A stretch of DNA of 64,000 nt from Leucoraja erinacea (lineage: Eukaryota), in contig NC_073398.1 in NCBI RefSeq assembly GCF_028641065.1, positions 28,396,001-28,460,000 of the forward strand, read 5' to 3'. Of the stretch, positions 1,796 to 47,348 are shown piece by piece. The position numbers and the translations under genes were made by a program. Each line of letters starts with the position of its first letter. Position 1 is the first letter of the stretch. The notes beneath the pieces are model-generated. The model was not told the DNA's origin and did not search any database. It worked only from the letters and a program-made list of their open reading frames with translations.

Positions 1796-1882
1796 GGTAA
1801 GCTCCAACAAACTGACTGTAAAGTCAGCAAAGAGTTTGAATGCCGTCCTTGAAGACCCAAAGTGCAGGATTGAGACATTATC
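1796..1882 (+). CDS. Internal exon of RI-like LRR (probable NLR-family) gene
   Basis: ttccag acceptor and gtgag donor; 87 nt, phase 2-2; VSSNKLTVKSAKSLNAVLEDPKCRIETL is one RI-type LRR unit. Confidence 0.8.
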
Positions 1883-1977
1883 GTGAGATTTTTCATCACA
1901 TAAATCCTCTTGTAAAATTCTCCAAGTTTCTATAGAGCTTCTAATCGCTGACATTTGCCATTTGGTTCCGTTTTCAG

Positions 1978-2145
1978 GTGTGGTACAAACTCTTTTGGTT
2001 CGGCGGGGGCTCAGATTCTGTGGAAAGCTCTGGCACGAAACAGAAGTCTCAAAATCCTTCGCCTGTATGACAATGGGATCACAGTTGAAGGCACAGAGAA
2101 CATGACTCAGTACCTGACATGCAACAAAACTCTCCAGAAACTCTT
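1978..2145 (+). CDS. Internal exon of RI-like LRR (probable NLR-family) gene
   Basis: tttcag/gtaag; 168 nt (2x84), phase 2-2; CGTNSFGSAGAQILWKALARNRSLKILRLYDNGITVEG...NKTLQKL is two LRRs typical of NLRC3/NOD-type exons. Confidence 0.85.
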
Positions 2146-3156
2146 GTAAGTAGCTGGTAGATGTGAGAACATAAGCAGTATATTTGGTAAATGCTCACAT
2201 TGGTTTGTGTGCAATTATTTTGGCGTTGGTGAGTTTGAGATGTGTTATGTAAATGTGAACATGTAGAAACAAGGTGCGGCAGATGATAGTTTACCCGGGA
2301 AAGACACAAAAAGCTGGAGTTATGCAGCGGGTCGGGCAGCATTCCTGGTGAACATGGAAAGGTGACGTTTTGGGACAAGACCATTTGCTTAGACTGATTA
2401 GTCTGAAGAAGTGCCCCGACCCACAGGTTTGATGAATCTGATTGATCAGTTTGATCTGATTGATCAATTCAGACTGATTAAACTGAAGAACGGTCCCAAC
2501 TAGTAACATTATATATCCATGTTCTCCAGGGATGCTGACTGACCAGCTGAGTTACTCCAACATTTTGTGTCTTTCCTTGTATAAATGTGGCTTTTTTTTC
2601 CTTTCCCAGTCTCCATGGGACCCCCTACCACACAAGGAACACTGCTGTTCCAGGCATGACCGTATGTTTTTGTTTCAGTGTGGAGGAGCGGCAGGAAAGG
2701 AGCAATGATTGAGAGAGCATTCTAACTCAAGACTGTGGCTGAATCACCATTAGCAATTGCACTAAGATTAGCTGGCAAAGATTACGCCTTTCGGAAGGAA
2801 CTGGGCACATTCTTAATTGAGTAATAAATAAAAGAAACGAGTTGTGGGTTTGGAAATAGTTTAGATCAGTAAAAGGAAATTAGGATATAAGGGAACTTGT
2901 GTTCAAATTTTCAAATAGAAATAATAATATTTGAAGAAGAAACATTTGCATGGATAAGAGAAAGAGTAGAAATAGTGAGCAAGTACAAAGCTCCCTATAT
3001 GTCTGCACAGTCATGATGCTGAATGGCCACTTCCTCATTGTAGAATTTGATGATTATTAAGATACCGTGAATGAGATGGTTGGAATTTAATTTTCTAATT
3101 CCTGATTTAAATACGATTGAAGCATTCACTAATTTTCATTGCCTTGTTGCTTTCAG

Positions 3157-3541
3157 TTTATGTGTAAACAAACTTGATGACCTTGAACAGAAAAACATTC
3201 AACAAATCGAAAAGCTGTGTCACGGGCTAAAGATCATCACTAAAATCAGAGACGATGAAGAGCTCTTACTCCGAGTTGAAAGTCAGGTTCAAATGCTTCC
3301 CTCCCTTGAGCAGAGTTACAGCACAGAGTGGATGTGCAAACTATTGAAATCCATTCTGAAAGACTTGGGAGATGAGAGTACCATACCTGATGTAGACACC
3401 CGGGTAAGGATACGAAAGATAAAAGCAAATATTAACAAATATCTTCAGAAGAACAAAGACACCGTGATTGATGTTCCAGACACGGAGAATGTGTTGCAGC
3501 TCCATACCCCTGCACCACTTCTTCTGAAACAACTTCCTTAA
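3157..3541 (+). CDS. Terminal coding exon of LRR/NLR-like gene (last LRR plus about 100-aa tail)
   Basis: tttcag acceptor at 3156; phase matches previous exon; LCVNKLDD continues the LRR; open to TAA at 3539-3541. Confidence 0.75.
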
Positions 3542-3557: not shown

Positions 3558-5430
3558 TCACGGTGGTGCAGCAGTAGAATTGTTGCCTTACAGCGAATGT
3601 ATCGCCAGAGACTCGGGTTTGAACCCGACTACGGGTTACATAGACATAGAAACATAGAAATTAGATGCAGGAGTAGGCCATTCAGCCCTTCGAGCCTGCA
3701 CCGCCATTCAATATGATCATGGCTGATCATCCAACTCAGTATCCCTTACCTGCCTTCTCTCCATACCCTCTGATCCCCTTAGCCACAAGGGCCACATCTA
3801 ACTCCCTCTTAAATATAGCCAATGAACTGGCCTCGACTACCCTCTGTGGCAGAGAGTTCCAGAGATTCACCGCTCTCTGTGTGAAAAAAGTTCTTCGCAT
3901 CTCGGTTTTAAAGGATTTCCCCCTTATTCTTAAGCTGTGACCCCTTGTCCTGGACTTCCCCAACATTGGGAACAATCTTCCTGCATCTAGCCTGTCCAAC
4001 CCCTTAAGAATTTTGTAAGTTTCTATAAGATCCCCTCTCAATCTTCTAAATTCTAGAGAGTATAAACCAAGTCTATCCAGTCTTTCTTCCTAAGACAGTC
4101 CTGACATCCCAGGAATCAGTCTGGTGAACCTTCTCTGCACTCCCTCTATGGCAATAATGTCCTTCCTCAGATTTGGAGACCAAAACTGTACGCAATACTC
4201 CAGGTGTGGTCTCACCAAGACCCTGTACAACTGCAGTAGAACCTCCCTGCTCCTATACTCAAATCCTTTTGCTATGAAAGCTAACATGCCATTCACTTTC
4301 TTCACTGCCTGCTGCACCTGCATGCCTAGTTTCAATGACTGGTGTACCATGACACCCAAGTCTCGCTGCATCTCCCCTTTTCCTAATTGGCCACCATTTA
4401 GATGAAAGATTATTACTAATGCATCCACTATTTCTGGAGCTACTTCCTTAAGTACTCTGGGATGCAGCCTATCTGGCCCTGGGGATTTATCGGCCTTTAA
4501 TCCATTCAATTTACCCAACACTGTTTCCCGAATAACCTGGATTTCCGGCAGATTATTTATGTCTTCCTTAGTGAAGACGGAACCAAAGTAGTTATTCAAT
4601 TGGTCTGCCATATCCTTGTTCCCCATGATCAACTCACCTGTTTTGACTGCAAGGGACCTACATTTGTTTTAACTAATCTCTTTCTTTTCACATATCTATA
4701 AAAACTTTTGCAGTCAGTTCCCTGCCAGTTTTCTTTCATAATCTATTTTTCCTTTCCTAATTAATCCCTTTGTCCTCCTCTGCTGGTCTCTGAATTTCTC
4801 CCAGTCCTCTGGTATGCTGCTTTTTCTGGCTAATTTGTACGCATCATCCTTCGCTTTGATACTATCCCTGATTTCCCTTGTTATCCACGGATGCACTACC
4901 TTACCTGATTTATTCTTTTGCCAAACTGGGATGAACATTTTTTGTAGTTCATCCATGCAGTCTTTAAATGTCTTCCATTGCATATCCACCTTCAACCCTT
5001 TTAGAATTAATTGCCAGTCAATCTTGGCCAATTCATGTCTCATACCATCAAAGTGACCTTTCTTTAAGTTCAGAACCATTGTTTCTGAATTAACAATGTC
5101 ACTCTCCATCCTAATGAAGAACTCAACCATATTATGGTCACTCTTGCCTAAGGGGGCACGTACAACAAGACTGCTAACTAACCCTTCCTCATTACTCAAT
5201 ACCCAGTCTAAAATAGCCTGCTCTCTCGTTGGTTCCTCTACAGGTTGATTAGATAACTATCCCGCATACATTCCAAGAAATCCTGTCTATCCTGAGGGTT
5301 CTGTCTATATGGAGTTTGTACGTTCTCCCCGTGACCTGCATGGGGTTTCGTCGAGATCTTTGGTTTCCTCCGACGGTCCGAAGATGTACAGGTTTCTAGG
5401 TTAATTGGTTTGGTAAATGTTTTTTAAAAA
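3558..5430 (+). mobile_element. tRNA-derived SINE split by a CR1 insertion (head 3558-3637, body about 5298-5430)
   Basis: A/B-box-like head ggtggtgcagcagtag...gggtttgaaccc; body ctgtctatatggagtttgtacgttctcccc resumes after the LINE. Confidence 0.75.
3638..5283 (-). mobile_element. CR1 LINE, 5'-truncated with the RT core deleted
   Basis: Minus ORFs 4714-5199 (PLGKSDHNMVEF), 4090-4632 (KSPGPDRLHPRVLKE joined directly to ...RPHLEYCVQFWSP), 3736-4041 (RGDLIETYKI...FFTQRAVNLWNSLP); short-repeat tail at 3638-3660. Confidence 0.92.
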
Positions 5431-11257: not shown

Positions 11258-11459
11258 ATCTCTGGAGAGAAGGAATGGGTGACGTTTGATCGAGACCATT
11301 CTTTAGGCTGAAGACGATGCTGCTGCCCCGCTGAGTGAATCCAGGGTCTGTCTTCGGTTTAAACCAGCATCTGCAGTTCCACGCTTAGAATGCACCAACG
11401 TGTTGGACGTGGAGAGCCTCTCTTGCTCTAATATTTTTGGTGTCCATTGCTGTCCCGTC

Positions 11460-11689
11460 AGCTGATCGCGGGGAGGTTGGTGAGATGACACCGCCTCTGG
11501 TGAGTCACCAGGGAGCGGCCACAGCCCGTCCTATAGACGAGGCGCAGCGTGAGCCGGGCGGAGCTTCCCCTAACGCGGACAAGGCCAATGCAAAGATCCT
11601 ATAGCGGAGTCTTTGGACAAGGCCAAAGCAAAGATCCCAAAGATCCTATAGCGAGCTCCCAGGAAGCGCGGAGTGAAAGCTTACACTCG
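11460..11689 (+). promoter_or_regulatory. Candidate CpG-rich promoter and non-coding first exon of the legumain-prodomain gene
   Basis: Local CpG/GC enrichment, AP-1-like tgagtca about 11501, GC box gggcggagc about 11556, donor cg|gtgagt at 11690. Confidence 0.5.
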
Positions 11690-12997
11690 GTGAGTTCAGT
11701 TCCCATTTGGGGGTATCCCTCCCCCAACCTCTGTATCTGAATATGTAAGATTTATTCTGTTGAAATTGACCGTGGATTATTGTAAATCGCTTTTTAATGT
11801 GGAAAGAAGTATCAATGTAACAAATTTAAAGTGTAATCCAATTAAAAGACGTTTGAAGAAGGGTCTCGACCCGAAGCGTCACCAGAGATGCTGCCTGTCC
11901 CGCTGAGTTACTCCAGCATTTTGTATCTGTTTTTGATGAAAACCAGCATCTGCAGTTCCTACATTAAAGATGTTTTCTCCTGGGAAGAACATGATTAAAT
12001 TGGTAAATATAATAGCTGGGATGTTGATGATCAGGGAGGTTGGTGGGATTAGGGAATCATACAGTGTAGGGCGAGGGGGACGAGGCACAAAGTGCTGGAG
12101 GACTCAGTGGGTCAGGCAGCCTCCCCCAGTGGCGGGCACAGACACACGATGTTCTCGGTCGAGACCTTTCTTCAGCCTCCGGTCAGGTTTTGCCCCCTCG
12201 TGTTCAGTTTAGGAAAAGCCTGAAGCGGAAACTCTGACAGAATTCCTTGATCGACATCCCCTCTTCACATGGTACACTTCCTTATCTATGTATCTCCCTC
12301 TCCCCTGACCCGAAATGTCACCCATTCCTTCGCTCCAGAGATGCTGCCTGTCCCGCTGAGTTACTCCAGCGTTTTGTGTGTATCTGGCAGAAATGCCACT
12401 GGCCCCCTCCTCCCCGCGGCGTGAGATATCTGTCAGGTCACAAGATTGTCACAAGATTGTCACATTTCATGCGGTGGCGTCGATGCAAAATCCTCAAGAC
12501 GAGTCTTTTGGCGAGAGAGTGACAATCTGCCAGCCTTTTTTGATTTGATTCCCGGCTCAGTTATCTGCTGGTTACCAGGAAGCAAATACACTGCCATAGT
12601 CCCTACAACACAACAACCATTCTGCATCGCACGCTGTCTCAGCAGCCGTGTAGATCTCGGAAATAAGACACAAAATGCTGGAGTAACTCAGCGGGGCAGG
12701 CAGCATATCTGGAGAGAAGGAATGGTTGACGTTTCGGGTCGAGACCCTTCTTCAGTTTCTCGGGGTATTTCTGAGCTCATGAAACGATATGCATGAGAAT
12801 GAACTGTAAAATACTCTGAATGTTTTCATGTTTAAGTCACTGATTAGGAGAATTCTGATGATAAATATTGATTCCTGCTCCTTGAGGTGTCCAGACTCTC
12901 TGTGCTGCTCCCTTAGGATTGGAGAGCTTTGTTTCTTTGTGAGAATTACAATATTCCCATGTTGCTTCCTGCTGCAGGTGCGGGCAAACCCACAGTA

Positions 12998-13123
12998 ATG
13001 GCAGGAATGGAGACTGTGGCACCGTGCGACGTACCTGTTACTCGTCTTGAGAATAGGATCAAAGCTGCTAAGGATCCAGAGGAGAAGGAGAAGCTGCAGA
13101 AAGACCTGGACCATCTCCTTGAG
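12998..13123 (+). CDS. LGMN-like: Legumain-prodomain-only protein, coding exon 1 (exon begins 12978)
   Basis: tgcag acceptor at 12977, gtaATGg Kozak context, gag|gtaatg donor; APCDVPVTRLENRI...LQKDLDHLLE aligns with legumain SPDVPLTIMKRKL...IQRHLD. Confidence 0.85.
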
Positions 13124-13546
13124 GTAATGGTGCAAAGTTGTTCCTCTACCCTGGGCCCCATACCAGGTATCTCCACCCATCGGGAACCAGCAAGGAGACT
13201 GTTGGATGGTGCTAGTCAGTGTGGGGCAGACATCCTCACTAACCTGCCTACAGTGCAGGGAGACACACACTGGTGGGCGTGCTGCTGTCAAATGGGGCTC
13301 ATGCTCCAGGGAATTCTTCCTTGTTCCCAGGACGGGCAGTAAAATGATGGATTCCCAGTCTTTGTCTACAGTTTAGTTTATTGTCACGTGAACCGAGGTA
13401 CAGTGAAAAGCATTTGTGGCGTGCTATCTAGTCAGCGGAAAGACAATACATGATTACGTAAATCGCGCCATTTACAGTGTACAGATACACGATGTGGGTC
13501 CTTCCTGTGTGGACGGGGTGAACCAAACAGCTCTGTTGTGTTGCAG

Positions 13547-13717
13547 GTGAGGGAGCTAATCCGACAGACAGTGCGAGAGATTGTTACTCTGGCCACGGAC
13601 TCCGAGGAACAGGCTGAGCGAGTGCTCGGCCCCAAGAAGCGTCTCACGGAGCGGGAAAACTACCGCTCTGCGGTGGAGTATTTCCAAATGCGGTGCTTTG
13701 ACTGGCACAATCCAGAG
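13547..13717 (+). CDS. LGMN-like: Legumain-prodomain-only protein, coding exon 2
   Basis: ttgcag/gtacgt; 171 nt; VRELIRQTVREIVTLA...FQMRCFDWHNPE resembles legumain ARHLIEKSVRKIVSLL...FRTHCFNWHSPT. Confidence 0.9.
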
Positions 13718-14938
13718 GTACGTCTGCGATGCATTCACATAGTACAGAGATAGATGCCAAGGTGAGTTCATGCGGCCATTGTCAAGTCTATATTATCAAG
13801 AGGCCAAAGAGAAAATATATCAAAAGCTGGGTCAACGTGTTAGCTTTAAGGAGGGGCGAGAGGCAGGGTGGTTGGGGAGTGTATTCTGGAGCATGAGGGT
13901 GAGATAGCAGAGGGTTTGGCCACCGATGATGGTGCGGATGAAGACAACGAAGCATATACTGTAGCAGCTGAGGGGGTGTGGAAACACTGCGGGAGTTGCA
14001 GGGTTACGGAGTTGTCGAGGTGCAGAGACCTGGCCAAGGAGGGTTTTACACCATTGTAAACAAGGGTAGGTCACTTGGACCCAGGTGTTGTGATGGTAGG
14101 CCATGACGTGGATGGCAGAAGTTTGGATGAGCTCGAGGTACTGCAGCTGAGAGACTTGGCTGCAACCAGGAGATCAATCGTTAAATCAAGAATAGAGGGA
14201 TAATATCCTGGGTGAACAGGGATGGGGACTAGGGTCTGATGAAGGGTCTCAACACCAAACCTTCATCAATCCAGGTTCTTCACAGATGCGGCCTGACCCT
14301 CTGAGTTACTCCAGCACTTTGTGTCCTTTTGTGTAAATCAGCGTGTCTGCATTTCCTTGTTTCTACTGGGTGGCCCTCGTCACCCACTCTTCCAACACAC
14401 ACAGGCATCAAAGAGGTTAAAATCCAGAAATAGCTTCCTACCTGCAGTTCAACCCCTGAATGATAACCCCCGCACCTGTAGGATAGATGCTTGGGTGACA
14501 CACCTACAATCAAAACCCCACACACTGACACTATACCCTGAGGAGTCCCATCCATTGGGAGCGAAAGACACATGGCCAGTCTGGCTCTGCTTCAATCACC
14601 TCAGAACATGGGTCGGACGGTGCAAGCCTTCATGCTGAAGTGGGGGTTCAACAACGAACAACTGAATGTGACTACGGGGAGGCAACCCAAACTAGTTGAG
14701 AATTTTGGAGTATCTCATGGTTGTGAATGGTGTGGAAAAGAGGAATTCCTCTGTTCCAGTCTGGGCATTGTAAATAATTGTTCTGATGTATATTGTTACA
14801 GTATGTTACTTAATGATGGGTAGGAAAGTGAGTTGTGGGGATGACATAAGGGTGACACAAAAAAGGGTGCGCATGGCCAAAGATTGGATTAATGTGAGAG
14901 AATGTGGGGTAGTCCAATGTTGTGCTTTGTTGTTACAG

Positions 14939-15006
14939 TATGAATATGCTCTTCACCAGTTGAGTCCCTTCGTCAATTTATGTGTGGAGAAGATCCCACT
15001 GACACG
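14939..15006 (+). CDS. LGMN-like: Legumain-prodomain-only protein, coding exon 3
   Basis: ttacag/gtacag; 68 nt; YEYALHQLSPFVNLCVEKIPLTR resembles [23 protein letters not shown]. Confidence 0.9.
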
Positions 15007-16027
15007 GTACAGTAATACCCAACTCTCTCTCTTTGCTCAAGCAATCAAAGCAAATAACATCTGGAATTAACTCTTAACCGATCATTGATCCCTTTAACAG
15101 AAGGCCTGATGGAATATAGTGAGCTGGGCAGTGCAATGTGTATATTCTGTATGTTCTCCCTGTGATCACTTTGGCTTCCTCCAAGTGCTCTAGTTTCCTC
15201 CCACATCCCAAACTCGTGTAGGTTCATTTGCCTCTGTAAATTGCCCCTAGTGTGTGAGAAGGTGGGATGGCATGGAATTAGTGTGAGCGGGTGATTGATT
15301 GTAGGTTTGGACTCCGTGGGGTGAAGGGCTTGTTTCCATGCTGTATCTTTAAACTAAACTAAACAGCATGGTAGTATGTTTCTGTGCCACTTAATGTAGT
15401 GGATGTTATTTTATGTAATTAAACTGATCGGGTCTATTATACTCAGAGTAATGGGGGCTAAGCTCCGCAATACACATATTCAACAGGGATATCATGAGTT
15501 AGGTCAGGTTACCCAGAGTAAAAACAGCAATAGTCTTTGTCAAACTTGAAATAATCATCAAAATCAGCCTTCGAGTCTGAATTAGCAGCAGGCTAACTTT
15601 GTACAGTCTTGTCTTTTTGAAGCAGGGAATCCCGGGCAGTGGGATAGTTTACAGCCATTGACCCAGCACAATCAAAGCCTTTTAGTCATCAGTTCAGGAC
15701 CATTCAAGTCAGAGAATTAAGGAAAGTGCTGGTAATATAATCATGAAAGTATTGTCATTCAAGCTGACAGTATTGAAAAGCATTAAATATACGGACTTAT
15801 TTTTGTCCAAAATAACTGTCTCCGCTTTGTCATCTTGAATCAAACATTGGTTGAAATTGTTCATTTTGGTCTCTTGTCTTGGAAAGGAGCCATCAAAATT
15901 GTAACAGATCTTTGCCTCTTTTCTTAACAAATGTAGATTGTGTTCGATTTTTTTCTAAAGCTTTTTTTTCCTGTGCTATCCCCCTGTCCACGAGCTGCAT
16001 TGTAATCACTCCTTTGTTTTTAAACAG

Positions 16028-16073
16028 GATCAAGGAAGCAATTGACCAAGTCAGTGAAAAGCTGAAGAAATGA
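16028..16073 (+). CDS. LGMN-like: Legumain-prodomain-only protein, last coding exon
   Basis: aaacag acceptor, phase 2; IKEAIDQVSEKLKK* resembles IKLSMDHVCLGHY*; spliced CDS 411 nt = 136 aa + stop. Confidence 0.85.
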
Positions 16074-17076
16074 AGAGTTGGCTCTCCTCATCTTCAGCAC
16101 AGCAGAAGGAGGGACCCTTAAGGACCTGTCCTCCCTCGGCCTGTGTGCTTTCCAACTGGAATTGTAATTTTTTTTAGAGTCTTTCTCTCTCTCTCTGCTG
16201 GTCAGATCATCTTGCTTGCAATAACTGGGAGGAGGTTTCTGCTGAAAGCAAATCATGGGAGACAAAAGCAAATTATAGACAGCTTTTATACTTTAAATAA
16301 TCAAATGATTACACAATGATACCAATGCTACCTCAGATGGTAGAAACATTTCTGTGCCATTAATATTTTTAATGTTGAAAATTCCTTCTCAATAGGTATG
16401 GGGTCAGATTAGTTAAATATACTTGATTATCACAAATCAATTTACTATTATTTTTTTTTCCAAATCTTTATTTTAAAGATTTAAACAGCTTCTGAGTGGC
16501 CTACCTTGATTTCTCTCACCATTCACATCTGCACTGTGGGGCAATTTAATCAGAAGTTGACAATCGGGCTTCACTAAATCTCCTTTAGGCAACGGCGAGG
16601 CTTAATTTTGCAGTGATTTTAGTCATTTCTTACCAGCAGGGCAGGCGGTTAGTTCTACGGTGGCTGAGCCTTGAGAACAAGACCCAGACTGATTCATAAG
16701 GGCATTTCTGAGAGAGTGCAGTATTTGTGTGCATGCCGACTTCTGGGTGAGATTTATACCAAAGCCATCCAACCTTTACCAGGATGCAATGTAAAAGACC
16801 CTATCCAAATATTAGTGAAGATGAAAGTAGACAAAAATGCTGGAGAAACTCAGTGGGTGAGGCAGCGTCTATGGAGCGGAGGAAATAGGCAACGTTTCGG
16901 GTCAAAACCCTTCTTCAGAAGTGAAGATGAATGTGGATTCCCGGCCAGCGTTTACTGCTAAACGAGACCTTTTGGCCTGTCCTTTGTTTAATATCATTCT
17001 GTGTACAAACATTCCCAATGGTAACTACGGTTCAATTGGCTGGGATGGCTTCAAGAACAGTGCTTGAGAAATGTCA

Positions 17077-17082
17077 AATAAA
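17077..17082 (+). terminator. Candidate polyadenylation signal of the legumain-like gene
   Basis: AATAAA followed by T-rich sequence about 1 kb after the stop. Confidence 0.4.
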
Positions 17083-18868
17083 TTTGAATCTTTAAAAAAA
17101 ATTATTGCTTTTATTTTAAGTAAATGAATTGATTAAGTCATTCTTCTGATTATTTGTTCTCTGTGTTAGTATTTCTAATTATTGCTCCTCTGATCACATT
17201 ATGTTTTCAAAAATTAGAGTTTTCCAATACAGAGTAAAGCAGCCACATGTGAGGACTAGGACTTGTAGCAACTAATGCTTCCATTAAGAGGAGGAGAAGA
17301 AGTAGGATTGCAAGTTGCTTATTTATTTGTCGAATCATTTGTGGGCATATTTGCTTCTAAATCAAGAGATTTCGGATTTAAGTCTAACTTCAGGAACCTG
17401 AGCACACATTAGAACATGCCAGATTGTTGGAGATAACCAAGTATGCCAGCTGTTGAATTTATCTCCACCCTTACTCGCAGGCGAATGGGGTTAGGAGGGA
17501 GTGATAGATCGATCAGCCATGATTGAATGGCGGAATAGACTTGATGGGCCGAATGGCCTAATTCTAATCTATTCCTATGATCATATGAAACAGGCCATTG
17601 TTAGCTGTGGCCTATGTGAAAACGAGTGTAGACGTGGAGTACATCTCATTTCCAGCTTCCTCCTCCCTACTACAACCAGTCTGAAGAAGGAGCCTGAACT
17701 GAAACGTCACCTGTCCATTCCCTCCACAGAAGTACCTGAGTTCCTCCAGCACTTTGTGTTTTGTCCACTATCCTGCAGGTTGTCCTTGATGAGCTGATGC
17801 TTTGACTAAATCTCTTTTTCTTTAGTCTCGCCGAGATTCAGGTCTGTGTTTTGACAGAGAAAGAGAGGCTGGAAATGAGGGTAAAATCAGATTACAGGCA
17901 TTTGCGTTGGACACTGTCCAGGAATGCAAAGAAGGAGACAGATAGAGTTCTGAAGGGTTCAGGTAAACCGGAGCAATTATTTCAGTAACAGTGTTTTTCT
18001 AACACACAATCTCCTGGCAGGTGAGTTTTAAGATGCCATTGCTACTTTAGGTAGCTTTGCTCGTGAGAGAGTGAGAATAGACCTTGCACATCCCATCGTG
18101 CTGTGTTAGAACCACGCCTCATATATAACTAATGTCTGACCCTTGCACAAAGTCAATGGCAATAATGAACTCTAGATGCTTTTCATCTTCTGTAACCAAA
18201 GCTCTGCTCAGTTCCAGAATGATTAATATCAAAGCTAGAAGTATATCTGAGAAGAGGGGAATCTAATTTCTCCGACAGCTGACAAATTCATTAGCAATGC
18301 ACTGTCAGCTCGGCCGTACAATATGCCCAACAAATGTCATCCCAAAGTGAACTAATGTTGAATCGATTATTTATTTGTTAGGTTTCTCCTCTGCCGTATT
18401 GTGCTGAGTGTCAGTCTCTGTCTTAGTACCTCGTGCCAAGTGGCTGCTCTCCAGCTACTGATTAAACAAAATGAGTACAGGTAGGATATTCATTCATGCG
18501 GGTAACTCGATATCTTCATTTAGGCTCTGCGCACAAGTGCTTAAAGCAAAGTGATTGATTCTCCTGGTTGACGACTGTACGGGGGAGGGCATATTGAATG
18601 GTTGCCTCACTGTCAAGTTCAACAAGTCAAAAGCCAAAGAACAAATTGATTGATTGATACTTTATTGTCACGTGTACTAGGTACAGTGAGATTCCTTCTT
18701 TGCAAACAGTACAAGCGTGCAAGAGTCGCCATGGAAAGGACGCTGACAAGGTTACAAAAGTATTTAATATAATGCCTCTTCCTTCTCTCAGAGAGGTAAA
18801 CGCTGCTTGGTCCATCACAGCTACTGACCTTCAGAAGGATTTAGAGGAGGTGCTGTCCTAAAAGCCAA

Positions 18869-19190: not shown

Positions 19191-19817
19191 CAATATCATC
19201 AAAGACCCCCTACACCCTAGCCATGCTTGCATTTTGCTCCTACCACCGGGAAGAAGTTATTAGAGTGGAAACCGTGACCACCAGGTTCAAGAACAGTTTT
19301 TTAGAGCCATACAGCATGGAAACTGTGCCTTCGGCCCAACTCGCCCATGTCGCCCATGATGCCCCATCTACACAGGTCTCAATTGCCCAAATCCCACTAA
19401 GCCTTTCCTATTCATGTACCTGTCCAAATGTCTTTTAAAGGTTGTTGCCTCAACTACCACCTCTGGCAGCTCATTCCTTATTTCTCCATCCAGTTTCTAT
19501 TAAATCTATCCCCTCACCTTAAACCTACGTCCTCTAGTTCTTGATTCCTCTACTCTGGGTAAAAGACTACATTCACCCTATCTTCCCCTCATGGTTTTAT
19601 ACACCTCTAAAATCACCCCTCGGCCTTCTGTGCTCCAAGGAATAATATCCTAACCACCCAATCTCTCTCTATATCTCAGGCCCTCATGTCCTGGCAACAT
19701 CCTCGTAAATCCTCTCTGCATTCTATCCAGCTGAACAACATGCTTCCTACAGCAGGGCGACGAAAACTGAACACCTTACCCCAAATGCAGCCTCATCAAT
19801 ATTTTGTAGAACTGTAA

Positions 19818-19954
19818 AGGGGCTGTCCCACTGGGGCGACCTAATCCGCGAGTTAAGAAGAGTGTCTTCGACCTTCAAGCTCGAGGGCACTCGCCTGAAA
19901 AACCTCCAGCTGGATCGACTGTCAGCGTTGAAACTGCAAGCTGGATCGACCGAC

Positions 19955-20026
<72 letters not shown>

Positions 20027-20550
20027 CATCGCAAAGGCGGGGGCCAGGGAAAGCAGGGGAGCTCTGTCTGAAATTCACACACGCGATGAAAAGAAAGCTA
20101 AAAGACGGCTGCACAGTGTACGGTAAGTCCTTTAAAGAGTGTGGAGAGGGGGAGAGGGGTGAGAAGGGGGGGGGCGGGGGAGAAGGAGTGGAGACACTTA
20201 AGAAGTATAATAAAGTTTAGCGGGCATTTTACCTAACGGCCAGTTTTCCTTGGTCCTGAAAACTCCAATGAGCCAATCATAATGCCCGGTCAGCGAAGGA
20301 GATTGCCTACGGCTGCCCTCGACTGCCTGTAACTAAAGAGCGATTCAACTCCACTGCACTACGAGTTAAAAAGAACCATGCCGACCAAATTTTACTCCGG
20401 CTGAGTTAGCGTGTATGCAGGAACTTCCCTCGAACATGAAGGAGAGTTCCAGTGACCTCATAGGACCAAGTGAGGACCATGCTGCGAGTTTGAGTCGAGG
20501 GCAAATTTATCTAAACTCGCAGATTAGGTCACCGCAGTGGGACAGCCCCT
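19818..20550. mobile_element. PIF/Harbinger-type MITE containing a (CA)n microsatellite
   Basis: TIRs aggggctgtcccactg / cagtgggacagcccct with longer imperfect subterminal IR; TAA TSD on both sides. Confidence 0.9.
19956..20028. repeat. (CA)n microsatellite
   Basis: Direct reading. Confidence 0.98.
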
Positions 20551-30161: not shown

Positions 30162-30307
30162 NNNNNNNNNNNNNNNNNNNNNNNNNNNNNNNNNNNNNNN
30201 NNNNNNNNNNNNNNNNNNNNNNNNNNNNNNNNNNNNNNNNNNNNNNNNNNNNNNNNNNNNNNNNNNNNNNNNNNNNNNNNNNNNNNNNNNNNNNNNNNNN
30301 NNNNNNN
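30162..30307. other. Assembly gap (146 N)
   Basis: Run of n. Confidence 1.
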
Positions 30308-38239: not shown

Positions 38240-38556
38240 GTGAGTGGCAGCAAATTATTGCCATTGTCCAGTTGCCTGTGGGCTCTGGTACAGGGATGAC
38301 ATGGAGAATCTGGGGAGTGGGACGTGTTTGGTCAAGGATATTGGGGGTGCGGTGAAATGAAGGGATTTCATGGGTTTACGAGGTAGAGAATGATACGTGG
38401 TGACTGGATGGCAGAGCGGAGGAGGAGTAATGGGATGTAGTTGTCGAAGAGGGTCAATTTGGAGGGAATGGGGTTTGGTCTGGTGGGGGGGGGAATGGTG
38501 CCCGAGGGGCAGTTGAAAGGGGGATGGGCAGATGACGGGTGCACCATGTTTTGCAG

Positions 38557-38684
38557 AGGCTGCCATGGCCTGTCTTGCTGTGGACCCTGCCATTCTCCTC
38601 ATCGTGGTGGGTGCGCTGATGTTCCTCATCACCTTCTGTGGGTGCATTGGATCCCTGCGGGAGAACATCTGCCTCTTGCAAACA
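38557..38684 (+). CDS. TSPAN33: Tetraspanin-33 exon 3
   Basis: ttgcag/gtgagt; AAMACLAVDPAILLIVVGALMFLITFCGCIGSLRENICLLQT; 128 nt. Confidence 0.95.
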
Positions 38685-38713
38685 GTGAGTGATGCTCGGC
38701 GTTGGTTGATGGC

Positions 38714-39185
38714 TTGGGTTGCCAACTGCCCCGTATTAGACTGGGCATCCCGTATATTGGTTTGTCCCACCCTTGTCCCGTATTTGACTGCTACTTCTCG
38801 GGTCGAGGGGAATGTCAGGTCGGAGCGCCGCACCCGTCCCGAAATAGTGCCGGCCATGGAATGCAGCAGCAGCGCCTCGCCCTGTCGTGGCCCTGTCGGT
38901 CGGCAGTCCGGCCAGTTGTCCGACCTTCGGACCTTAGCCACCACCCCTGCTTCTCATGGCCGATCATCGGTTCATGAGTTGGATGGGTGGCGGACTTTGC
39001 GCGCGATGCTCGGGCCAAAACTCTTCAGCTGGCCCGCTGGCTGGGCTTTGTGTGCAGTCCAGCACCCGGGCCAACTCATCATTCACCCAGCCACGGCTGA
39101 GTCGGTCAACGAATTGCCGTTGGGGATTTGTCCCTTATTTTGACCTTTTGTCCCTTATTTGGGAGTGAGAAAATTGGCAACCCTA
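38714..39185. mobile_element. hAT-like non-autonomous element
   Basis: Termini ttgggttgccaac / ttggcaacccta; GC-rich interior with tgtcccttattt repeats; TSD not resolved. Confidence 0.6.
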
Positions 39186-39749
39186 ATGCTGGGAGAACTG
39201 TCTCCGTGAGGGCTGGAGGAGCTGAAACCCAGCTCCTTGTGTTGCTCGGATCCCCTCGGTGGAGGACTATTGTTCCTTTTGGCCACCTTTGGATGCAGGC
39301 CCTCGGGATAGGACGTGGATACGGGTGGGATGTGGCACTGAGGGCCGTTCATGGACAGTAACTGGTCACTGAGGTGTTGCAGCAGGGAGTGAGAGAGTCT
39401 GGTTGATGGGCACGCGTGTGACCCTGAGGTGTTTTTGGGCTGCAGTGACGTGCCATCTTCATTGCAGTCCTTCCTCCCCGACTCCCTCTCAGAGCTGTCC
39501 ACCTGTTCTGCCTCACCACCCCCATCTCACACTACCCACAAATGGCCTGCACTCCCCCCCCCCCCCCCCCCCCCCCATACATGCAAGACAGGAGCAGCTC
39601 GTGGGTACCCATTACAAGACCTGTTCGCGGACCAATTTTAAACCAGCAATTATTGCTGATGGACAGCATCGGATAGCTGGTCCCCACCCCCTCCCCTCCT
39701 CTCTGCTGCTATTTCTGCTGATCTTGATCTTGATTTTGTTCCCCTCTAG

Positions 39750-39824
39750 TTCTCCATCTGCCTGACGCTGGTATTTTTGCTACAATTGGTTGCTGGGGTC
39801 CTGGGCTTTGTCTTTTCAGATAAG
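39750..39824 (+). CDS. TSPAN33: Tetraspanin-33 exon 4
   Basis: ctctag/gtatga; FSICLTLVFLLQLVAGVLGFVFSDK; 75 nt. Confidence 0.93.
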
Positions 39825-41556
39825 GTATGACTTTGCTTTTCTTAGTGAAATTTTGTACCAGGTTTCTATTAAATGGAAGAAAAAACCCCAAAGTTGCTGT
39901 AAACTGTCTGGCACAACTGTTGAGGATTTGTGGCTATATAATTTTTTTTTTAATTAATTCTTGATTAATACGGGTGTCAGGGGTTAAGGCGAGAAGTCGG
40001 TAGAGTGGTGTTGAGAGGGAGGGATAGATCAGCCATGATTGTGTGGTGGACTAGGCTTGATGGGCCAAATGGCTTAATTCTACTCTTATCACTTATGAAC
40101 ATATGAATTTATAAATAACACGGCAGGCAGCAGAGCGAGGGTGTGTAGCGTCTCAGTGCAGAGACGTGTGATACATTTCCTCTGTTTGCAGTTGGTTTAA
40201 CTGTGAGGGAAAATTGATTCAGTTGGGCCTTTTAGAACTGACGGAAGATTTTAATCCAGGTGCATAAATTGTGAAGCGTTCCGTGTTCACCCTTGATTTC
40301 CCTATAAAGTGATCAATAGATTACATAGAACAGTACAGCCTAGGGACAGGTCCTTCGGCCCACAATGTCCATGCTGGACTTGATGCCAAATTAAACGAAT
40401 CTCGATTTTAACAGGTAACAGGGATAATAGAAAATAAATATTGATAATGCCGAGGGTTAGATGCTTACAGCTTGATGGGGGAGGGAGCACTTATTGTGGG
40501 TGATCAACATTTGATTACAGTTTGAGACCTGTGCAATCTGCTCCATTTTCAGTTGCCTTGGAGACGGTAGATTGAATAGCTTCCCTCTGTGTTTAGATTT
40601 CTGGTTCACGAGTCAGACAGAGTGTGGAGCAATAGGATCAATGAGGTGAGAGGAATTGTGATCATTTGACACAATTTGGGATTTCAGCTTGGAAGGAATC
40701 AAGTGATGAGTGTGGTGCATTGCAAGGAGGGTGGGGTGGAGTGGAGGGTGAGGAGGGGGAGTGTCGGCAATTGTGCTTTAGGGAGAAATGCAAATGCACA
40801 CATCTGTTTCATTCTAATGTTTTCATAAAAGGGAATGGATTTAATTTAGTTTCTTTTTATTGTCACATGGTTCGACGTGTCTACAGTGCGCTGTTGGTTC
40901 AATGGTGGCGGCTGTTCGGTGAAACTCACGATGCAAAGCAGTCTTCAGCTTTCTGGAGATTTTCACATTTTTTAGAAATTGCATTTTTATACTCATCGAT
41001 TTTTGCCAGTTTTATTACATAAAGGTGCACTAGTTGTACGTGAACTGTTAGATCAAAAGGCTGTGCATTTCAATGTCATTATTTAGTTTTCCTACAATGT
41101 GGTGTGTATGTTTGGACGTCTTTTGTTATATTATTTTTAGAATATTGAATATGTAAATTTTATACAATTTAATTATTTGTTAAATTGGAAGTTGATTGGT
41201 CACAACATCAAAACAGTGGGATATTTTGATGGAATAAAATCATAGTTTAATTGATATATTCATACTGCCGCAGCACCTTTATATACTTGCGCTAATTGTC
41301 TCATTTGTTTCTGACAAAGAATGTTTGTTCCATTGAGACTCTGGTCTCCTTTCCCCCACATTTCTGTAAAACAGATTCACTCACACATGCCCTCTGTTCC
41401 TACTACCCCCTACAGAAGGGGACATTTACAGTGGCTAATTAACCTACTAGCCAGCGGGTCTTGGGCTGGGATCATTCGTGATCCCAGGGAGAAAGTGCAA
41501 TCCCCATGGAGACAACACTGGCAGCCAGGATTGAACCTGGGGCTCTTGCCGTTGAA

Positions 41557-41580
41557 GCAGCAGCAGCAGCAGCAGCAGCA
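41557..41580. repeat. (CAG)n microsatellite
   Basis: Direct reading; intronic, at the edge of a minus-strand SINE. Confidence 0.9.
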
Positions 41581-42859
41581 CCATCTGCTGCACCCCTCTG
41601 TCACCCACGATGGTGCTGATTGCAAGGAAGTGGCTACTGCAGCTGGTGGCCAAATCCCTGGGAGAACTTCAAGTGCTCCCTGACACTTGTGCTCAAACCT
41701 GCAGGCACTTGGATGTCTTGTCCAGTCTCAGGATGAGGGTACCGGTGAGGTCACCAAGTACCCTGAAGAAGGCACGACTGCCTTTCATTGGCCCAGGCAC
41801 TTCAGCAGCTGGATAGGAGTTGCCTGTGGGACAAGAGCAGAGCAGGGCAACACTCGAGATTCTGTTCTGTGAACGGATTTAAAAAGCCTGAAAGATTTTT
41901 ACAATAATCCAATGGGTTCCTGATGTTTTGTTATAGTGGGACCAGGTTTCTTTCCTTTTTTCCCCTGACTTTTAAACTCTGGAAATTTTCTTGGAATAGA
42001 ATCAAAGTGTTGGAAATACTGAGCGGATCAAGTAATTTCTCAAATTGTTGTAACATCCGACCCAAGCTTCATGCCACACCACATGTCGGCCCGAAACGTT
42101 GCCTATTTCCTTCGCTCCATAGATGCTGCTGCACCCGCTGAGTTTCTCCAGCATTTTTGTGTACCTTAGATTTTCCAGCATCTGCAGTTCCTTCTTATAC
42201 ACTGTATCAAAGCTCTCCTGCTCCACGCTTACATTTCAGCCTTCACTGTCTCAACAAAAGCCTCCATCCTTTCTCGTGGACATCAAAGTTTGTAGACAGG
42301 TTTTGCTTTCTAACTTGGTTCTCATTTCCCCTTCTCCCCAACTGCATTGCTTCCCCAACCCCAGCCATATTTTCACTGTTCTTTCCCCCTTTCCCCCTCC
42401 CCCCCCACTCCCTTGCTGATCTTGAATGATCGGTTCCCGGCAAGAACGCTGGCTTCATCCCACTACATCCCCATTTTGTTGAATCCTGAGCCGGGGATGG
42501 TATCGATTTATTCGCCGACTCCCTGTCCTGTTTCTTGGGCCAGAGATTGTCACCCCCAGACTGTGGGCTTCTTGCTTTTCCAGAATTCCTGATCAACTTG
42601 GACTCTTCCCCCCTCACCCCAATCTCTTAACCTCTCCAGATCAAAGACAAAAGGCTCACCCTGTCCACAGGTGCTGCCTACCCAGTTGGCTATTCCCAGC
42701 ACTTCTTCTGTTCCTTGTGATGTTTTGATTTCTGTGTTGTATCACTCTGACTCCAACGTCCACCCCTCCTCACCTTGAGAGTTGCTCAAACTGCAGAAAT
42801 TATTCTGGATGACATTGAGAATGTGGGGTACACCGAATCCTGGTGTAACAGTGAAAGGA

Positions 42860-43280
42860 GTGCACCAACATCAAGTGCCCCGCTCCCTGCCATGGATGCC
42901 CTCCACCGAAAACGGTGTCTGAGACGGGCTGGGAAGATCATCAAAGACCCCTCACACCCCAACCATGGACTGTTTGCCCTCCTCCCATCAGGGAGGCGGT
43001 ACAGGAGCCTCAGGTCACGTACTAGTAGGATGAGGAAAAACTTCTATAACAACACAATCACACTGCTGAACTCGGAGTCCCGACGATAGATTTCTCTGGT
43101 CCCTCCGTCCCCTTTGTTTAATCATTCTGTATTTCCTGATTATTCTGTATCTTCCCTCTTTCTATTTTTTTTTGTTTTTCTTTATGTACAACTACTACGG
43201 ACTGACGCAAAACTGCATTTCGTTGTACTGATACTTGTATTTGTGCGTTGACATTAAAGTTGAATTGAATTGAATTGAAT
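42860..43280 (+). mobile_element. Rex1/Babar-like LINE 3' end
   Basis: IIKDPSHPNHGLFALLPSGRRYRSLRSRTSR; (ttgaa)n tail at about 43259-43280. Confidence 0.85.
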
Positions 43281-44815
43281 CAAACTACCCACCTGTAGGC
43301 ACACACCGCCCCAACTCTACAAGGCCCTGTGGACTCCACAGTGCCCTCATTAATCATTCCACTGAACAGGGGTACCAAAAAAAAAAAGGATCCGTTGAAA
43401 TATAAAAGATACTTTTATGATGTTAATGTATTTGATGCAATGGAGTCAGCAGGAAAAGGTTAACTTACCCACCCAGTCATAGTCATCTTGCACAGAAACA
43501 GGCCCTTCGGTCCGACTCATCCATGCCAACCGGGATGTCTATTTACACTAATTCCTGGCTTGATGCGCTGAGTGGCCTAATCCTGATCCTATTATTATTT
43601 TATTTTTTTATAACATCCCAGTTGTTCCCAGCTAAAGGCACTAACAGTAAATGTGAAACAATTAAAAGAGCTATGATTATATCAAATGACAGGCAGTCTT
43701 GAGCAATTGATCTGCCTACGCCTATAGTTTTCATTGTGGACCGGAGTCTTAGACCATTTTATTTTCAGAATGAGGTGCATTTTCCCCATAGGACATTGCA
43801 TGGTTCTATGCATCCCTCTTGTGTTTCAGACAGTTTTTCTTTGTGAAACGTGACAGAGACTAAATTGGGAACCTCCTGCTGTTTGTCAGCCCTGGCTCAG
43901 TGGCAGCACCCTCCCCTCTGTAGTCAGGCTGCCCTGGGCTCGTGTCCTGCAGAAGGCTTCGTCACAGAAGAATTCTTGGCTCTATCTTCAGAGCAGTAGT
44001 GAGAGAGCGTTGTACTGTCAGGGATGCTTTCTTTGAGATGTGGCTTTGAGAGTCCTGTCTAGATTTTTGTTTAGATAAAGAAGCCTTTGGCACTGCTGTG
44101 GTGACCTGGCCAGTCAACATCATACCAACGGAAAGGGCTTTGACATTAAATGTGACGTCTTTCTCTTTCCAAACGTGTTGCCTGACCTGCTGAGTGTTTC
44201 ATAAAAACAACTGGCTCATAACAACATTGTTATTTCTGGCACCTTAATGTAAATTGGCTGCTGCTCTTTCAACTTGCACCCGTGTCTACACTTCAGGAGT
44301 CTTCCATTGTTTGCACAGTACTTTGTGCCGATACAAGTCTGCTCCAAGTCTGTGATAAAACTGTCTGATCTTGTGCCCAGCTGTTCCTTGCAGCTGTGGT
44401 GCAGTCAGCACCTCGGTTACTGCACTTGTTGTAATCTTAATGCCAGTTTCTTGCTTGCTGGCTGAGACATGTTTTAGGATTAATATTGGAGTCATGTTCT
44501 GACTGGTTCTTTCCCTCTGAGTTCTAAAAACAAATGTTTCATGAAATGTCCACATGCAAAACAATGCACAGAAATAAGGGCATTTGTAGCCCAATTGACT
44601 CCAATTCATTGTTTTTAAGAAGGAACTGCAGATGCTGGAAAATCGAAGGTAGACAAAAGTGCTGGAGAAACTCAGCGGGTGCAGCAGCATCTATGGAGCG
44701 AAGGAAATAGGCAACGTTTTGGGCTGAAACCTTTCTTCAGACCAATTCATGCCAGGTTTTGTGCTCCATGCACCTACTGACCAATCCTTATCTAAACACA
44801 TCTACATAACCACCT

Positions 44816-47348
44816 CAGGGCTGCCAACTCTGAGCATTGAGCGTGAGACTCGCGCTTTTCGCACAATTCTCACGCTGGTCACAGAATTTCTCACACTCAA
44901 AAACAAAAATAATAAAAAATAAAGTCACAAACAATTCAATTTGCCCAAGGCTTCCAGATCTCCTCCGCACTCACCAATGAGAATAGTTTTCTGTCGGTGG
45001 GTTTCCCGTAAAGAACGAGCAATTTGATTGGCTTAGTCCCATCGCACACTATTAATATGCATAAGCTTGGCCTTCCACAGGAACGTGGTGAGAATGCTGC
45101 TTTACAGCTTGCATTCCACTATAAGACTGTTAAGGCCTTGGACACGCTAGAGGCAGGAAACATGTTCCCGATATTGGGAGAGTCCAGAACCAGGGACCAC
45201 AGTTTAAGAATAAGGATTAAGCCATTTAGAACGGAGACGAGGAAACACTTTTTCTCATTGAGTGGTGAGTCTGTGGAATTCTCTGCCTCGGAGGGCGGTG
45301 GAGGCAGGTTCTCTGGATGCTTTCAAGAGAGAGCTAGATAGGGCTCTTAATATTATTGTGGAGCCGGGGGATATGGGGAGAAGGCAGGAACAGGGTACTG
45401 ATTGTGGATGATCAGCCATGATCACATTGAATGGTGGTGCTGGCTCGAAGGGCCACATGGCCTACTCCCGCACCTATTGTCTATTGTCTAAAAGTACGAT
45501 GCAAATATATCCCTGATATCATCGGCCACATTACGTGTGACGATACACAAGGACCATGCTAATTTTTGCATGCAGTGGAAATGTAATTCATAACCTGGTC
45601 TAGGCTCAACTGGGCTGAGTCACTCCAGAATCTGTGTCCTTTTGTGTATTAATCAGTTCCTTGTTTCTACATTTTGACTTCTCTATTTTTGCAGCCATAG
45701 CGTTATGCAAACGTCTGGCGTAATTCAGTAGATGTTTGCTCGGATTGAGATGGACAATAACCTTGACACATTCAGCGATCTGTTCCTGTGCATCAAAATA
45801 AACTTGGTCATTGGTCCAATGGTTACATTTTTCAAGATTTACTCCTTACAGTGAAATGAAATGAAATGATTCAATTTATTGTCATTGTCAGTGTACAGTA
45901 CAGAGACAACGAAATGATTTTTAGCATCTCCCAGTGCTGGAGGATGTCAGATACCATGGGTAGATATTGAGCCAAAGTGTAGCCAGTATTTTCTCTGCGA
46001 GGAGGTGGACCAGATGGAATAAATCTTTTTTTCAGTTTATTAATTCCCAGAAGAAGTGAGGCAGCAGCAGAAGTTATTTGGTGTTGTAAAAGCTGCCTTA
46101 AACGATGTAGCTTCAGTAATTGTTGCATTAATAGCAGGCTTAAAGCAGCATCAGAGGCTATGTGTGTTGAATTTAGTATTGTTGTTGTCCTGATAGAACA
46201 TAGAACACAGAGAAATACTCTTCCTCTCTCCTGAAAAGAAGAAAGAAAAAAAAACCCGGGGCGTCGCGGTGGTGTTGCGGCAGAGTTGCTGCCTTGCAGC
46301 GCCAGAGACCCGGGTTCCATCCTGACTATGGATGCTGTCTGTACGGAGTTTGTACGTTCTCCCTGTGACTATGTCGGTTTTCTCCCACACTCCAAAGACG
46401 TGCAGGTTTGTAGGTTAATGGGCTTTGGTAAAAATGGTACGTTGTCCCCAGTGTGTAGTATAGTGCTAGTGTACAGGGTGTTTCTCTCCCATCTTCAACA
46501 CCCAGCCTCTCTCGTTGTTCTTTTCACTCTGCTCTGACCAAAAGTCTTATCTTAAAGCACACAAAGCTCTGGTAACTCAGTGGGTCAGAAAGCATCCCTG
46601 GGGAACATAGGTATGTCATGTCTCAGGTTGGGATCCTTCATCAGTCTGAAGAAGGGTCCACGCCTGAAATGTCACCTACCCATGTTCTCCAGGGATACTG
46701 CCTGACCCACTGAGTTACTCCAGAGCTTTGTGTGCTTTCTTGTAAACTAGCATCTGCAGTTCCTGGTTTCTACATGCTGTACATCTTTTGTTCCTGTCTT
46801 AACTCCAAGGTAAGGTCACCAGTGCAGTTAGACAGAGTATTGCCTGACGCGCTAAGTTACTCCAGAAATTTGTTTCCCTTTGTGGATACTGTCTCTTTGT
46901 TGTTCTCTTTCTTCTTGGTCAGTAAGTTTGTATGTTGTAGTCATAGTTTTACAGCGGAAACAGGCTCTTCAGCCCAACTCGCCCACATCGGCCAACACGT
47001 CCCATCTACACTAGTTCCACCTGCCTGCATTTGGCCCATATTCCTCTAAACCTGTACCTATCTCACTGTCTCTCATGTGCTGCATCTGTTGATCAGAGCC
47101 TGGCTCTACTGTGGAATGTAATATAGCCTAACCTTATTCATACCTAATCCAATTTAAAGCATAAATGTTGCATTCAAGTGTAATTTAAAATACTCATTAC
47201 AGTATGCACCACAATTTCAAGCTGAAAAATGCAAAAGCTCCCTACCGTGGAAGGGGGGACACCCCCCCTCCCACAACCTCCCACCCTTGGTTGCTGCACT
47301 CCCTTGCAATTTCTCATTCTCAACTGTCACCCAATGTTGGCAGCCCTG
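44816..47348. mobile_element. Old hAT-like element expanded by nested CR1, SINE and Penelope insertions
   Basis: Termini cagggctgccaac / gttggcagccctg; no clean TSD. Confidence 0.5.

Follow-up and report, generated by a model that had tools for sequence, protein, structure and literature searches.

A small, expressed gene of sharks and rays encodes the legumain lid without the enzyme: a candidate cytosolic cap

A 64,000-nt stretch of the genome of the little skate, Leucoraja erinacea (NC_073398.1, positions 28,396,001–28,460,000, forward strand; hereafter the window, in whose positions all coordinates are given), carries at 13547–16073 exons that resemble the C-terminal LSAM domain of the asparaginyl endopeptidase legumain, and raises the question of why two of the four cysteines expected in that domain are missing. 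An earlier note on this DNA had argued that one cysteine was lost from each of the two LSAM disulfides and that, with no signal peptide and a highly charged sequence, the pattern reflected relocation from the endolysosome to the cytosol or nucleus rather than random decay. The exons prove to be part of a spliced five-exon gene extending from 11567 to about 17095 (Table 1), and sharks and rays keep this small gene, expressed at the RNA level, which encodes the legumain lid only, without the enzyme, an export signal or either of the lid's two disulfides. The protein is probably an unstudied regulator working in the cytosol.

The product has 136 residues, consists of the activation peptide and LSAM domain of legumain only, and is identical to a RefSeq protein of the same species (P0006); databases label the prodomain-only protein simply as ‘legumain-like’. 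The legumain prodomain family Legum_prodom (PF20985) is its sole significant Pfam match, above the cut-off, and no match to Peptidase_C13 was found by Pfam in the 136-residue protein, the caspase-fold catalytic domain with His148 and Cys189 being absent. When seven full-length legumains were compared with the window by tblastn, only the prodomain exons were matched at E < 0.05 and no catalytic exon was detected. A weaker match (62995–63159, minus strand, E 0.11) was discarded as legumain as its frame resembles what we take to be a Tc1 transposase. By the features that define the family the protein is therefore not a legumain but a legumain prodomain existing as its own gene and, as the whole catalytic domain is missing, the loss of cysteines becomes one feature among several that mark a family of prodomain-only genes. 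The high charge noted earlier is real: 49 of the 136 residues are D, E, K or R (27–37 of 133–135 in six canonical prodomains) and the grand average of hydropathy is −0.69 (−0.11 to −0.41 in the same six). There is no N-glycosylation sequon in the 136 residues, and from its predicted model the product is a soluble helical protein.

Transcript evidence came from four public sequencing runs aligned to 11380–17300 only; two of these (X1 and X3) are presumed to be RNA, and their alignments are spliced. One 603-letter contig from run X3 spans all five exons from 11567, a contig from run X1 (a separate study) links 11576–11690 to exon 2, and raw oligo-dT reads of run X24 cross the three downstream GT–AG joints (three, three and five reads in about 5% of the run). 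The gene thus begins upstream of the range noted earlier, to which exons 1 and 2 have to be added, exon 2 encoding the segment of the activation peptide that covers the active site, along with the first helices. The X1 and X3 contigs begin within exon 1 with no unaligned letters, although contig ends cannot fix the exact start of transcription, and exon 1 lies in a CpG-rich stretch (observed/expected ratio 0.69–0.85 across 11300–11800). The coding sequence is polymorphic among the RNA runs at Arg16/Leu16 (13044) and Ile127/Val127 (16041), four further coding differences being silent.

The claim that there is no signal peptide depended on what lay upstream, and it survived inspection of the upstream exon. 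Exon 1 contributes no codons to the main frame: it carries an in-frame TGA 12 codons upstream of the ATG at 12998 and no ATG intervenes, so the frame cannot be extended to include a signal peptide. The protein itself reaches a peak eight-residue hydropathy of only 1.28 compared with 2.48–3.79 in signal-bearing legumains, on what is a crude measure for calling signal peptides. A candidate upstream open reading frame (ORF) is formed by splicing of exon 1 to exon 2; a 9-base deletion in two of the RNA contigs leaves its frame intact. A gene model of 196 residues from Amblyraja (P0008) joins the frame of this upstream ORF to that of the main ORF. At 12917 there is another AG acceptor, preceded by pyrimidines, from which a phase-0 donor would be read on into the main ORF in frame.

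Conservation was assessed by a size-limited protein search (73–238 residues), which gave 16 matches among 881 candidates, 15 of them prodomain-only proteins of 133–141 residues from sharks and rays and the other a chimeric gene model. Across the 16 elasmobranch species (72–95% identity to the skate protein) Cys10, Asn80, Cys92, Cys114 and Ser131 are all invariant. The 90% identity cluster to which the skate protein belongs has 20 members; 15 of these were listed, and they include 12 variants of 136 residues whose contigs measure 1.2–1.4 kb. Retention of the frame and of the cysteine pattern in 16/16 orthologs, with splicing seen in RNA data, excludes decay, as the earlier note had maintained, and the comparison indicates a functional, conserved gene. 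The reading of the locus as a non-functional remnant, or as the mis-annotated tail of a longer legumain gene, is already largely refuted and we regard it as exceedingly improbable: it can draw on the fact that expression is evidenced at the RNA and not the protein level and on the overlap of the upstream ORF with the start codon, but the gene starts with an exon of its own that contains an in-frame stop, catalytic exons are absent from the window, and the length of the product is maintained across the orthologs and the clustered variants. Amblyraja radiata has two near-identical annotated copies (P0007 and P0008) on separate contigs (of 105 Mb and 44 Mb). Both boundaries of exon 3 fall at the limits of the match to genomic fragments of canonical legumain genes (P0093, P0101 and P0110), and from this we infer that the gene arose by DNA-level partial duplication of a legumain gene in which the last coding exons were retained.

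The four cysteine positions are as the earlier note had them. In ENYRSA the first cysteine is absent, Asn80 (13658–13660) aligning with human Cys378; the cysteines of MRCFDW (Cys92, 13694–13696) and VNLCVE (Cys114, 14981–14983) are kept and align with Cys390 and Cys412; and in DQVSEK the last cysteine, human Cys429, is Ser131 (16053–16055). As Asn80 and Ser131 occur in 16/16 orthologs, the four-cysteine feature of canonical LSAM is absent throughout. Overlooked previously was a third cysteine, Cys10 (13025–13027), which lies in exon 2 and so outside 13547–16073. We take the pairing in the human protein (UniProt Q99538, PDB 4FGU) to be C378–C412 and C390–C429, and this pairing fits the helix order of the predicted model. 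Published descriptions of LSAM bear out the count of two disulfides (PMC12320161, PMC7489914), though not the residue numbers of the pairs.

Among 144 aligned prodomains, 36 (33 from this family) lack the first and last cysteines together while keeping the middle two, and for this reason we considered whether these two might be partners, in which case only one disulfide would have been lost, Cys92 and Cys114 (or Cys10 with either) could still be bonded and the pattern would say little about compartment. The pairing given above, itself presumed, contradicts this, and Cys92 and Cys114 end successive antiparallel helices and so should lie at opposite ends (judging by the helix order of the model). 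The middle cysteines have moreover been lost independently, the Albula prodomain-only protein keeping Cys390 alone, Electrophorus Cys412 alone and piranha neither. We consider loss of a single bond quite improbable.

To see whether cysteine loss accompanies leader loss, signal-bearing and leaderless legumains were compared in a control set of 29 proteins (Met start, at least 270 residues, an N-terminal W-x-x-L-x-A-G motif and a prodomain match; one tandem-fused model was left out). Five of the 29 are leaderless full-length proteins (two from Electrophorus and one each from Albula, Chanos and the oyster Crassostrea), with a leader of 7–11 residues and no hydrophobic stretch. Cys378 is present in 0/5 and Cys429 in 0/5 of these, compared with 24/24 and 20/22 (where the column is filled) of the signal-bearing legumains, and Cys378 is also present in 10/10 canonical bony-vertebrate prodomains including those of sturgeon and bichir. 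The oyster protein clusters with those of molluscs and other invertebrates in both prodomain and catalytic-domain trees and, as its branch is separate from the teleost ones, loss of the leader together with both cysteines has at least two separate origins. The complete leaderless legumains (among P0047, P0050, P0054, P0140 and P0081, from Albula, Electrophorus, Chanos, Acnodon and oyster) retain the His and Cys of the catalytic motif and are candidate cytosolic asparaginyl endopeptidases; Albula and Acnodon carry prodomain-only models beside the leaderless enzymes. Two leaderless teleost catalytic domains have no N-glycosylation sequons compared with three to five in seven complete canonical vertebrate domains, but two signal-bearing invertebrate domains also have none and the oyster protein has three.

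From this coupling, and from the missing leader, a cytosolic location of the prodomain-only protein appears likely. The relocation suggested earlier is hence upheld by inference as regards departure from the secretory route, but nothing points specifically to the nucleus: the PKKR at 71–74 is specific to the skate and not conserved, and was dropped as a nuclear signal. It should be noted that the control comparisons and trees contain no canonical shark or skate legumain, none having been found among the database matches or among 24 proteins looked up by name, while one preprint reports that sharks possess catalytically intact legumain genes, with their catalytic domains covered (bioRxiv 10.64898/2026.06.04.730232). 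The same cysteines might then have been lost from canonical chondrichthyan legumain for reasons unrelated to relocation, a reading to which positive selection on elasmobranch canonical legumain, as reported in PMC5278576, lends something; against this stands the presence of Cys378 in every signal-bearing legumain from invertebrates to mammals and in every canonical bony-vertebrate prodomain, and we consider shared loss highly improbable.

Exon 3 alone matches five PDB prolegumain entries (E 3e-7 to 3e-6), and a profile of the 16 orthologs matches PDB entries at E 3e-26 to 3e-29, human prolegumain (4FGU) among them at E 3e-28 without gaps, a homology well beyond chance. The AlphaFold model of the skate protein (predicted local distance difference test (pLDDT) 80, predicted template modelling score 0.72) has mammalian prolegumains as its first seven Foldseek matches (TM, template modelling score, 0.65–0.75). 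In a wide fold search only a plant proenzyme stands out (Z 10.8, root mean square deviation 4.0, 129 residues aligned), and neither the skate nor the piranha protein obtained a usable match in the ESM Atlas. Modelled from its single sequence, the cysteine-poor piranha protein shows an identical order of helices, at a confidence too low to be relied on (pLDDT 63.5). The likeness to the mammalian prolegumain C-terminal prodomain (MEROPS C13; 4FGU, 4NOK and 4D3Y; PF20985) is thus one of ungapped homology over about 125 residues with the same predicted fold, Arg342, Cys390 and Cys412 being common to both; the skate protein differs in being a separate gene without signal peptide or catalytic domain, in lacking Cys378 and Cys429, in having the new Cys10 and in the replacement of Lys316, Arg317 and Arg403. 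The AP-LSAM (activation peptide plus LSAM) fragment of plant legumains (AtLEG-beta Gln346–Ala486 in the two-chain state; the OaAEP1 proenzyme, PDB 5H0I) has a similar start and, like 14 of the 16 orthologs, an S1-plugging Gln, but it arises in the vacuole by cleavage of the proenzyme to which it belongs, and its two disulfides are intact.

Outside the elasmobranchs, a profile search of 1.84 billion representative sequences gave 144 matches. After one chimeric shark model the top two matches, from bonefish (E 7e-35) and piranha (E 8e-31), consist of the prodomain only, the best canonical legumain following at E 4e-22, and there are further prodomain-only models from sturgeon, Acnodon and opah. 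The bony-fish proteins (sturgeon, bonefish, piranha and opah), some of which are incomplete gene models, are 40–47% identical to the skate protein, compared with 30–37% for canonical prodomains, and have the same start point. They too are ‘legumain-like’ proteins without Cys378, without Cys429 where this is covered and without a signal peptide (one model being doubtful), and differ in lacking Cys10 and, in some, further cysteines. The leaderless proteins of Chanos, Electrophorus, Albula and Crassostrea share the loss of Cys378 and Cys429 and likewise lack Cys10, but keep the catalytic domain.

Phylogenetic analysis of 46 prodomains places the elasmobranch proteins, those that stand alone in bony fish and the leaderless enzymes of teleosts in one group (support 95/90), apart from canonical LGMN (100/99), and in every tree the bony-fish leaderless forms fall outside the LGMN clade of tetrapods and fish. 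A common origin is nonetheless not secure. Without the four cysteine columns and two long branches, support for the group falls to 53/37 (92/37 when only the stand-alone proteins are considered), and a topology in which the elasmobranch proteins join canonical LGMN, as an origin confined to elasmobranchs would have it, passes the approximately unbiased (AU) test (p 0.134). Given the low support, the AU result and a set holding no shark LGMN, descent of stand-alone and leaderless forms from one ancient gnathostome gene is plausible but not established, and the trees give only moderate support to orthology of the bony-fish forms to the elasmobranch gene. A more far-reaching scenario, which we consider doubtful, is that a cytosolic legumain lineage predated the split between sharks and bony fish and was lost in tetrapods, its survivors being leaderless enzymes in some teleosts and prodomain-only proteins in sharks, rays, sturgeon and some teleosts; the elasmobranch protein would then be a cytosolic guard against legumain-type proteases, with Gln9 in S1 and Cys10 at the catalytic thiol, or a signalling partner of the adjacent membrane-anchored Ig-NLR described below.

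What the protein might do in the cytosol is suggested by where it begins, eight residues before the position of human Ser307. In human prolegumain this serine hydrogen-bonds into the P1 pocket (PMC4357240), and in plant proenzymes a Gln is described as sitting unproductively in S1 with the following residue beside the catalytic cysteine (PMC7489914). It is further reported that the cleaved LSAM remains bound and stabilizes the enzyme at neutral pH, that caps can be re-ligated (PMC8491156, PMC5834244) and that legumain has been observed in cytosol and nucleus (PMC9788469). The start at the Ser307 position, the plant-like Gln9, the kept Arg342, lid binding at neutral pH and the existence of legumain outside the lysosome together lead us to favour, with a probability of about 0.4–0.45, a role as a trans-acting cap or lid on a legumain-type catalytic domain in the cytosol. 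A protein without a signal peptide would be made in the cytosol, where disulfides do not form, so that one partner of each bond was probably replaced, the remaining two LSAM cysteines staying as free thiols that other lineages have lost as well. The lid would bind a legumain catalytic domain in trans at neutral pH, this being either legumain escaped from the lysosome or a leaderless paralog; Gln9 would enter the S1 pocket as in plant proenzymes, which would place Cys10 next to the catalytic cysteine, and the result of binding would be either inhibition of the enzyme or its retention in a capped form.

Several observations weigh against this proposal. The canonical lid is described as docking on the acidic catalytic domain via basic residues, with the double arginine Arg342 and Arg403 as an LSAM motif (PMC8491156); the skate protein keeps Arg342 but has Glu/Gln, Asn and His for Lys316, Arg317 and Arg403, so that the double arginine and basic docking face are not preserved, and it is slightly acidic overall (26 D/E, 23 K/R). 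Gln9 is not fixed, as the allele in the window and the comparison with Amblyraja and Rhinoraja show: it is Pro in the little skate itself and Asn, Ser or Gly in the bony-fish proteins, which lack both Gln9 and Cys10. Limited database searches found no leaderless legumain enzyme in any elasmobranch, and one bony-fish model, that of the bonefish Albula (171 residues), starts with a hydrophobic stretch.

The same losses fit another reading, in which the protein, cytosolic and free of disulfides, has given up binding to legumain and serves instead as a module for another partner or is exported non-classically to signal like the 17-kDa C-terminal fragment of legumain. A protease-independent role of this kind is the main rival to the lid, though in our judgement an unlikely one. 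Besides the loss of Lys316, Arg317, Arg403 and net positive charge, it gains from surface positions that are well conserved but differ from canonical legumain (Glu45, Glu86 and the Ile127–Asp128 region) and from the human 17-kDa fragment being reported (PMC5312427) as active without enzyme activity. That fragment (osteoclast inhibitory peptide 2) resembles the skate protein in being a free non-catalytic C-terminal domain but is released by proteolysis from a secreted proenzyme and acts extracellularly with its disulfides present, whereas the skate protein comes from a dedicated leaderless gene. A free module would also not need to start at the active-site-covering segment or to keep Asp11–Val12–Pro13 and Arg44, which are retained among the orthologs, Arg44 (human Arg342) invariantly.

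Other proteases offer a parallel for the trans-acting lid. Stand-alone propeptide-like protease inhibitors are known in MEROPS family I29 (CTLA-2, crammer and BCPI) and share with the skate protein the existence of a prodomain as its own expressed gene; they belong to other folds and protease clans, and inhibition has been demonstrated for them but is putative here. In the literature searched no stand-alone propeptide inhibitor was found for clan CD family C13. Nor did the open-access literature yield any account of a fish legumain that is leaderless or reduced to the prodomain, and a term search of the main text of the whale-shark genome paper (PMC8455134) found no mention of legumain. Control of legumain outside lysosomes is an open question in work on cancer and neurodegeneration, and the isolated human LSAM domain is difficult to produce because of its disulfides. 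If it is disulfide-free and soluble as predicted, a natural AP-LSAM protein would allow the domain to be tested on its own and could serve as a tool or template for control of legumain at neutral pH. The findings further suggest that fishes have a leaderless branch of the legumain family that has not been described, and that the signal peptide and the same two cysteines have disappeared together more than once.

A different kind of partner is suggested by the gene immediately upstream, which is NLRC3-like. The sole long close relative found for the skate protein is a 1086-residue protein of the catshark Scyliorhinus torazame in which Pfam identifies an Ig V-set domain, NACHT, leucine-rich repeats (LRRs) and the legumain prodomain, and four RefSeq isoforms of this species join the NLR in frame to the prodomain at a donor that corresponds to the GT after 3403 in the skate NLR exon. 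As the catshark LRR and C-terminal exons match 1797–3445, the gene order is common to skate and catshark. The prodomain could on this basis be a partner or adaptor of the Ig-NACHT-LRR protein, at times fused to it, and the description of LSAM as death-domain-like in parts of the literature is in keeping with this. Pyrin-only and CARD-only proteins, which regulate NLRs, would provide the analogy.

The evidence from the skate is nonetheless mostly against fusion. A splice from 3403 to the acceptor actually used at 12978 reaches a stop after six codons, and the in-frame acceptor at 12917 has no depth in runs X24, X1 and X3, the fourth run having read starts there on the minus strand alone. Beyond the 3403 donor, conservation of the NLR frame continues as far as the stop codon of the NLR itself. 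Two neighbouring genes with consecutive locus tags are given for the same catshark scaffold in an older annotation, and a sister species has a stand-alone protein; we read the catshark fusion as probable read-through in one species. No death-fold chain occurs among the structural matches listed, and Pfam gives no death-fold match in the protein. Complex prediction for the cytosolic part of the catshark NLR (residues 200–960) with the catshark prodomain scored 0.00, with the fold of the partner uncertain and no alignment used, and speaks neither for nor against the link. Overall we regard the adaptor role as improbable. The Ig-NACHT-LRR architecture itself is given by two independent annotations, and a literature search found no description of an Ig V-set NLR architecture. 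The catshark ortholog of the NLR (P0187) has, in addition to its N-terminal Ig V-set domain, what appears by eye to be a signal-like start and a hydrophobic helix at about 158–177 before the NACHT and LRR domains, and the upstream protein is apparently a membrane-anchored NLR.

Table 1. Features of the prodomain-only gene and its neighbours, in window positions
Feature	Position	Strand	Details
NLRC3-like gene, upstream, last three exons	~1797–1883, 1979–2143, 3158–3541	+	tblastn, 53–76% identity to Scyliorhinus torazame protein over 1797–3445
Exon 1, non-coding for main frame	11567 (or slightly earlier)–11689	+	RNA contigs; GT–AG intron; in-frame TGA 11674–11676
Upstream ORF (candidate), 40 codons, spliced exon 1–exon 2	11588–12998	+	TAA overlaps main ATG (TAATG)
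Exon 2	12978–13123	+	ATG 12998; residues 1–42; Pro/Gln9 (= human Ser307), Cys10 at 13025–13027
Exon 3	13547–13717	+	Residues 43–99; Arg44 (= Arg342), Asn80 (= Cys378), Cys92 (= Cys390)
Exon 4	14939–15006	+	Residues 100–122; His105 (= Arg403), Cys114 (= Cys412)
Exon 5 (3′ end approximate)	16028 to ~17095	+	Residues 122–136; Ser131 (= Cys429); TGA 16071–16073; 3′ untranslated region; AATAAA at 17077
Tetraspanin gene, downstream, three exons detected	38517–52793	+	Pfam Tetraspanin in 3/295 open frames scanned

The tetraspanin gene on the downstream side can be used as a synteny marker; its exon at 50273–50434 resembles TSPAN33. The Pfam scan covered 295 of the 347 open frames of the window, leaving out five of low complexity near 19750–20217 and 47 beyond 57261. 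Fragments at 3640–5260 and 62935–63471 resemble, in translation, what we take to be a CR1-type LINE and a Tc1-type transposase respectively, and an assembly gap of 146 N lies at 30162–30307.

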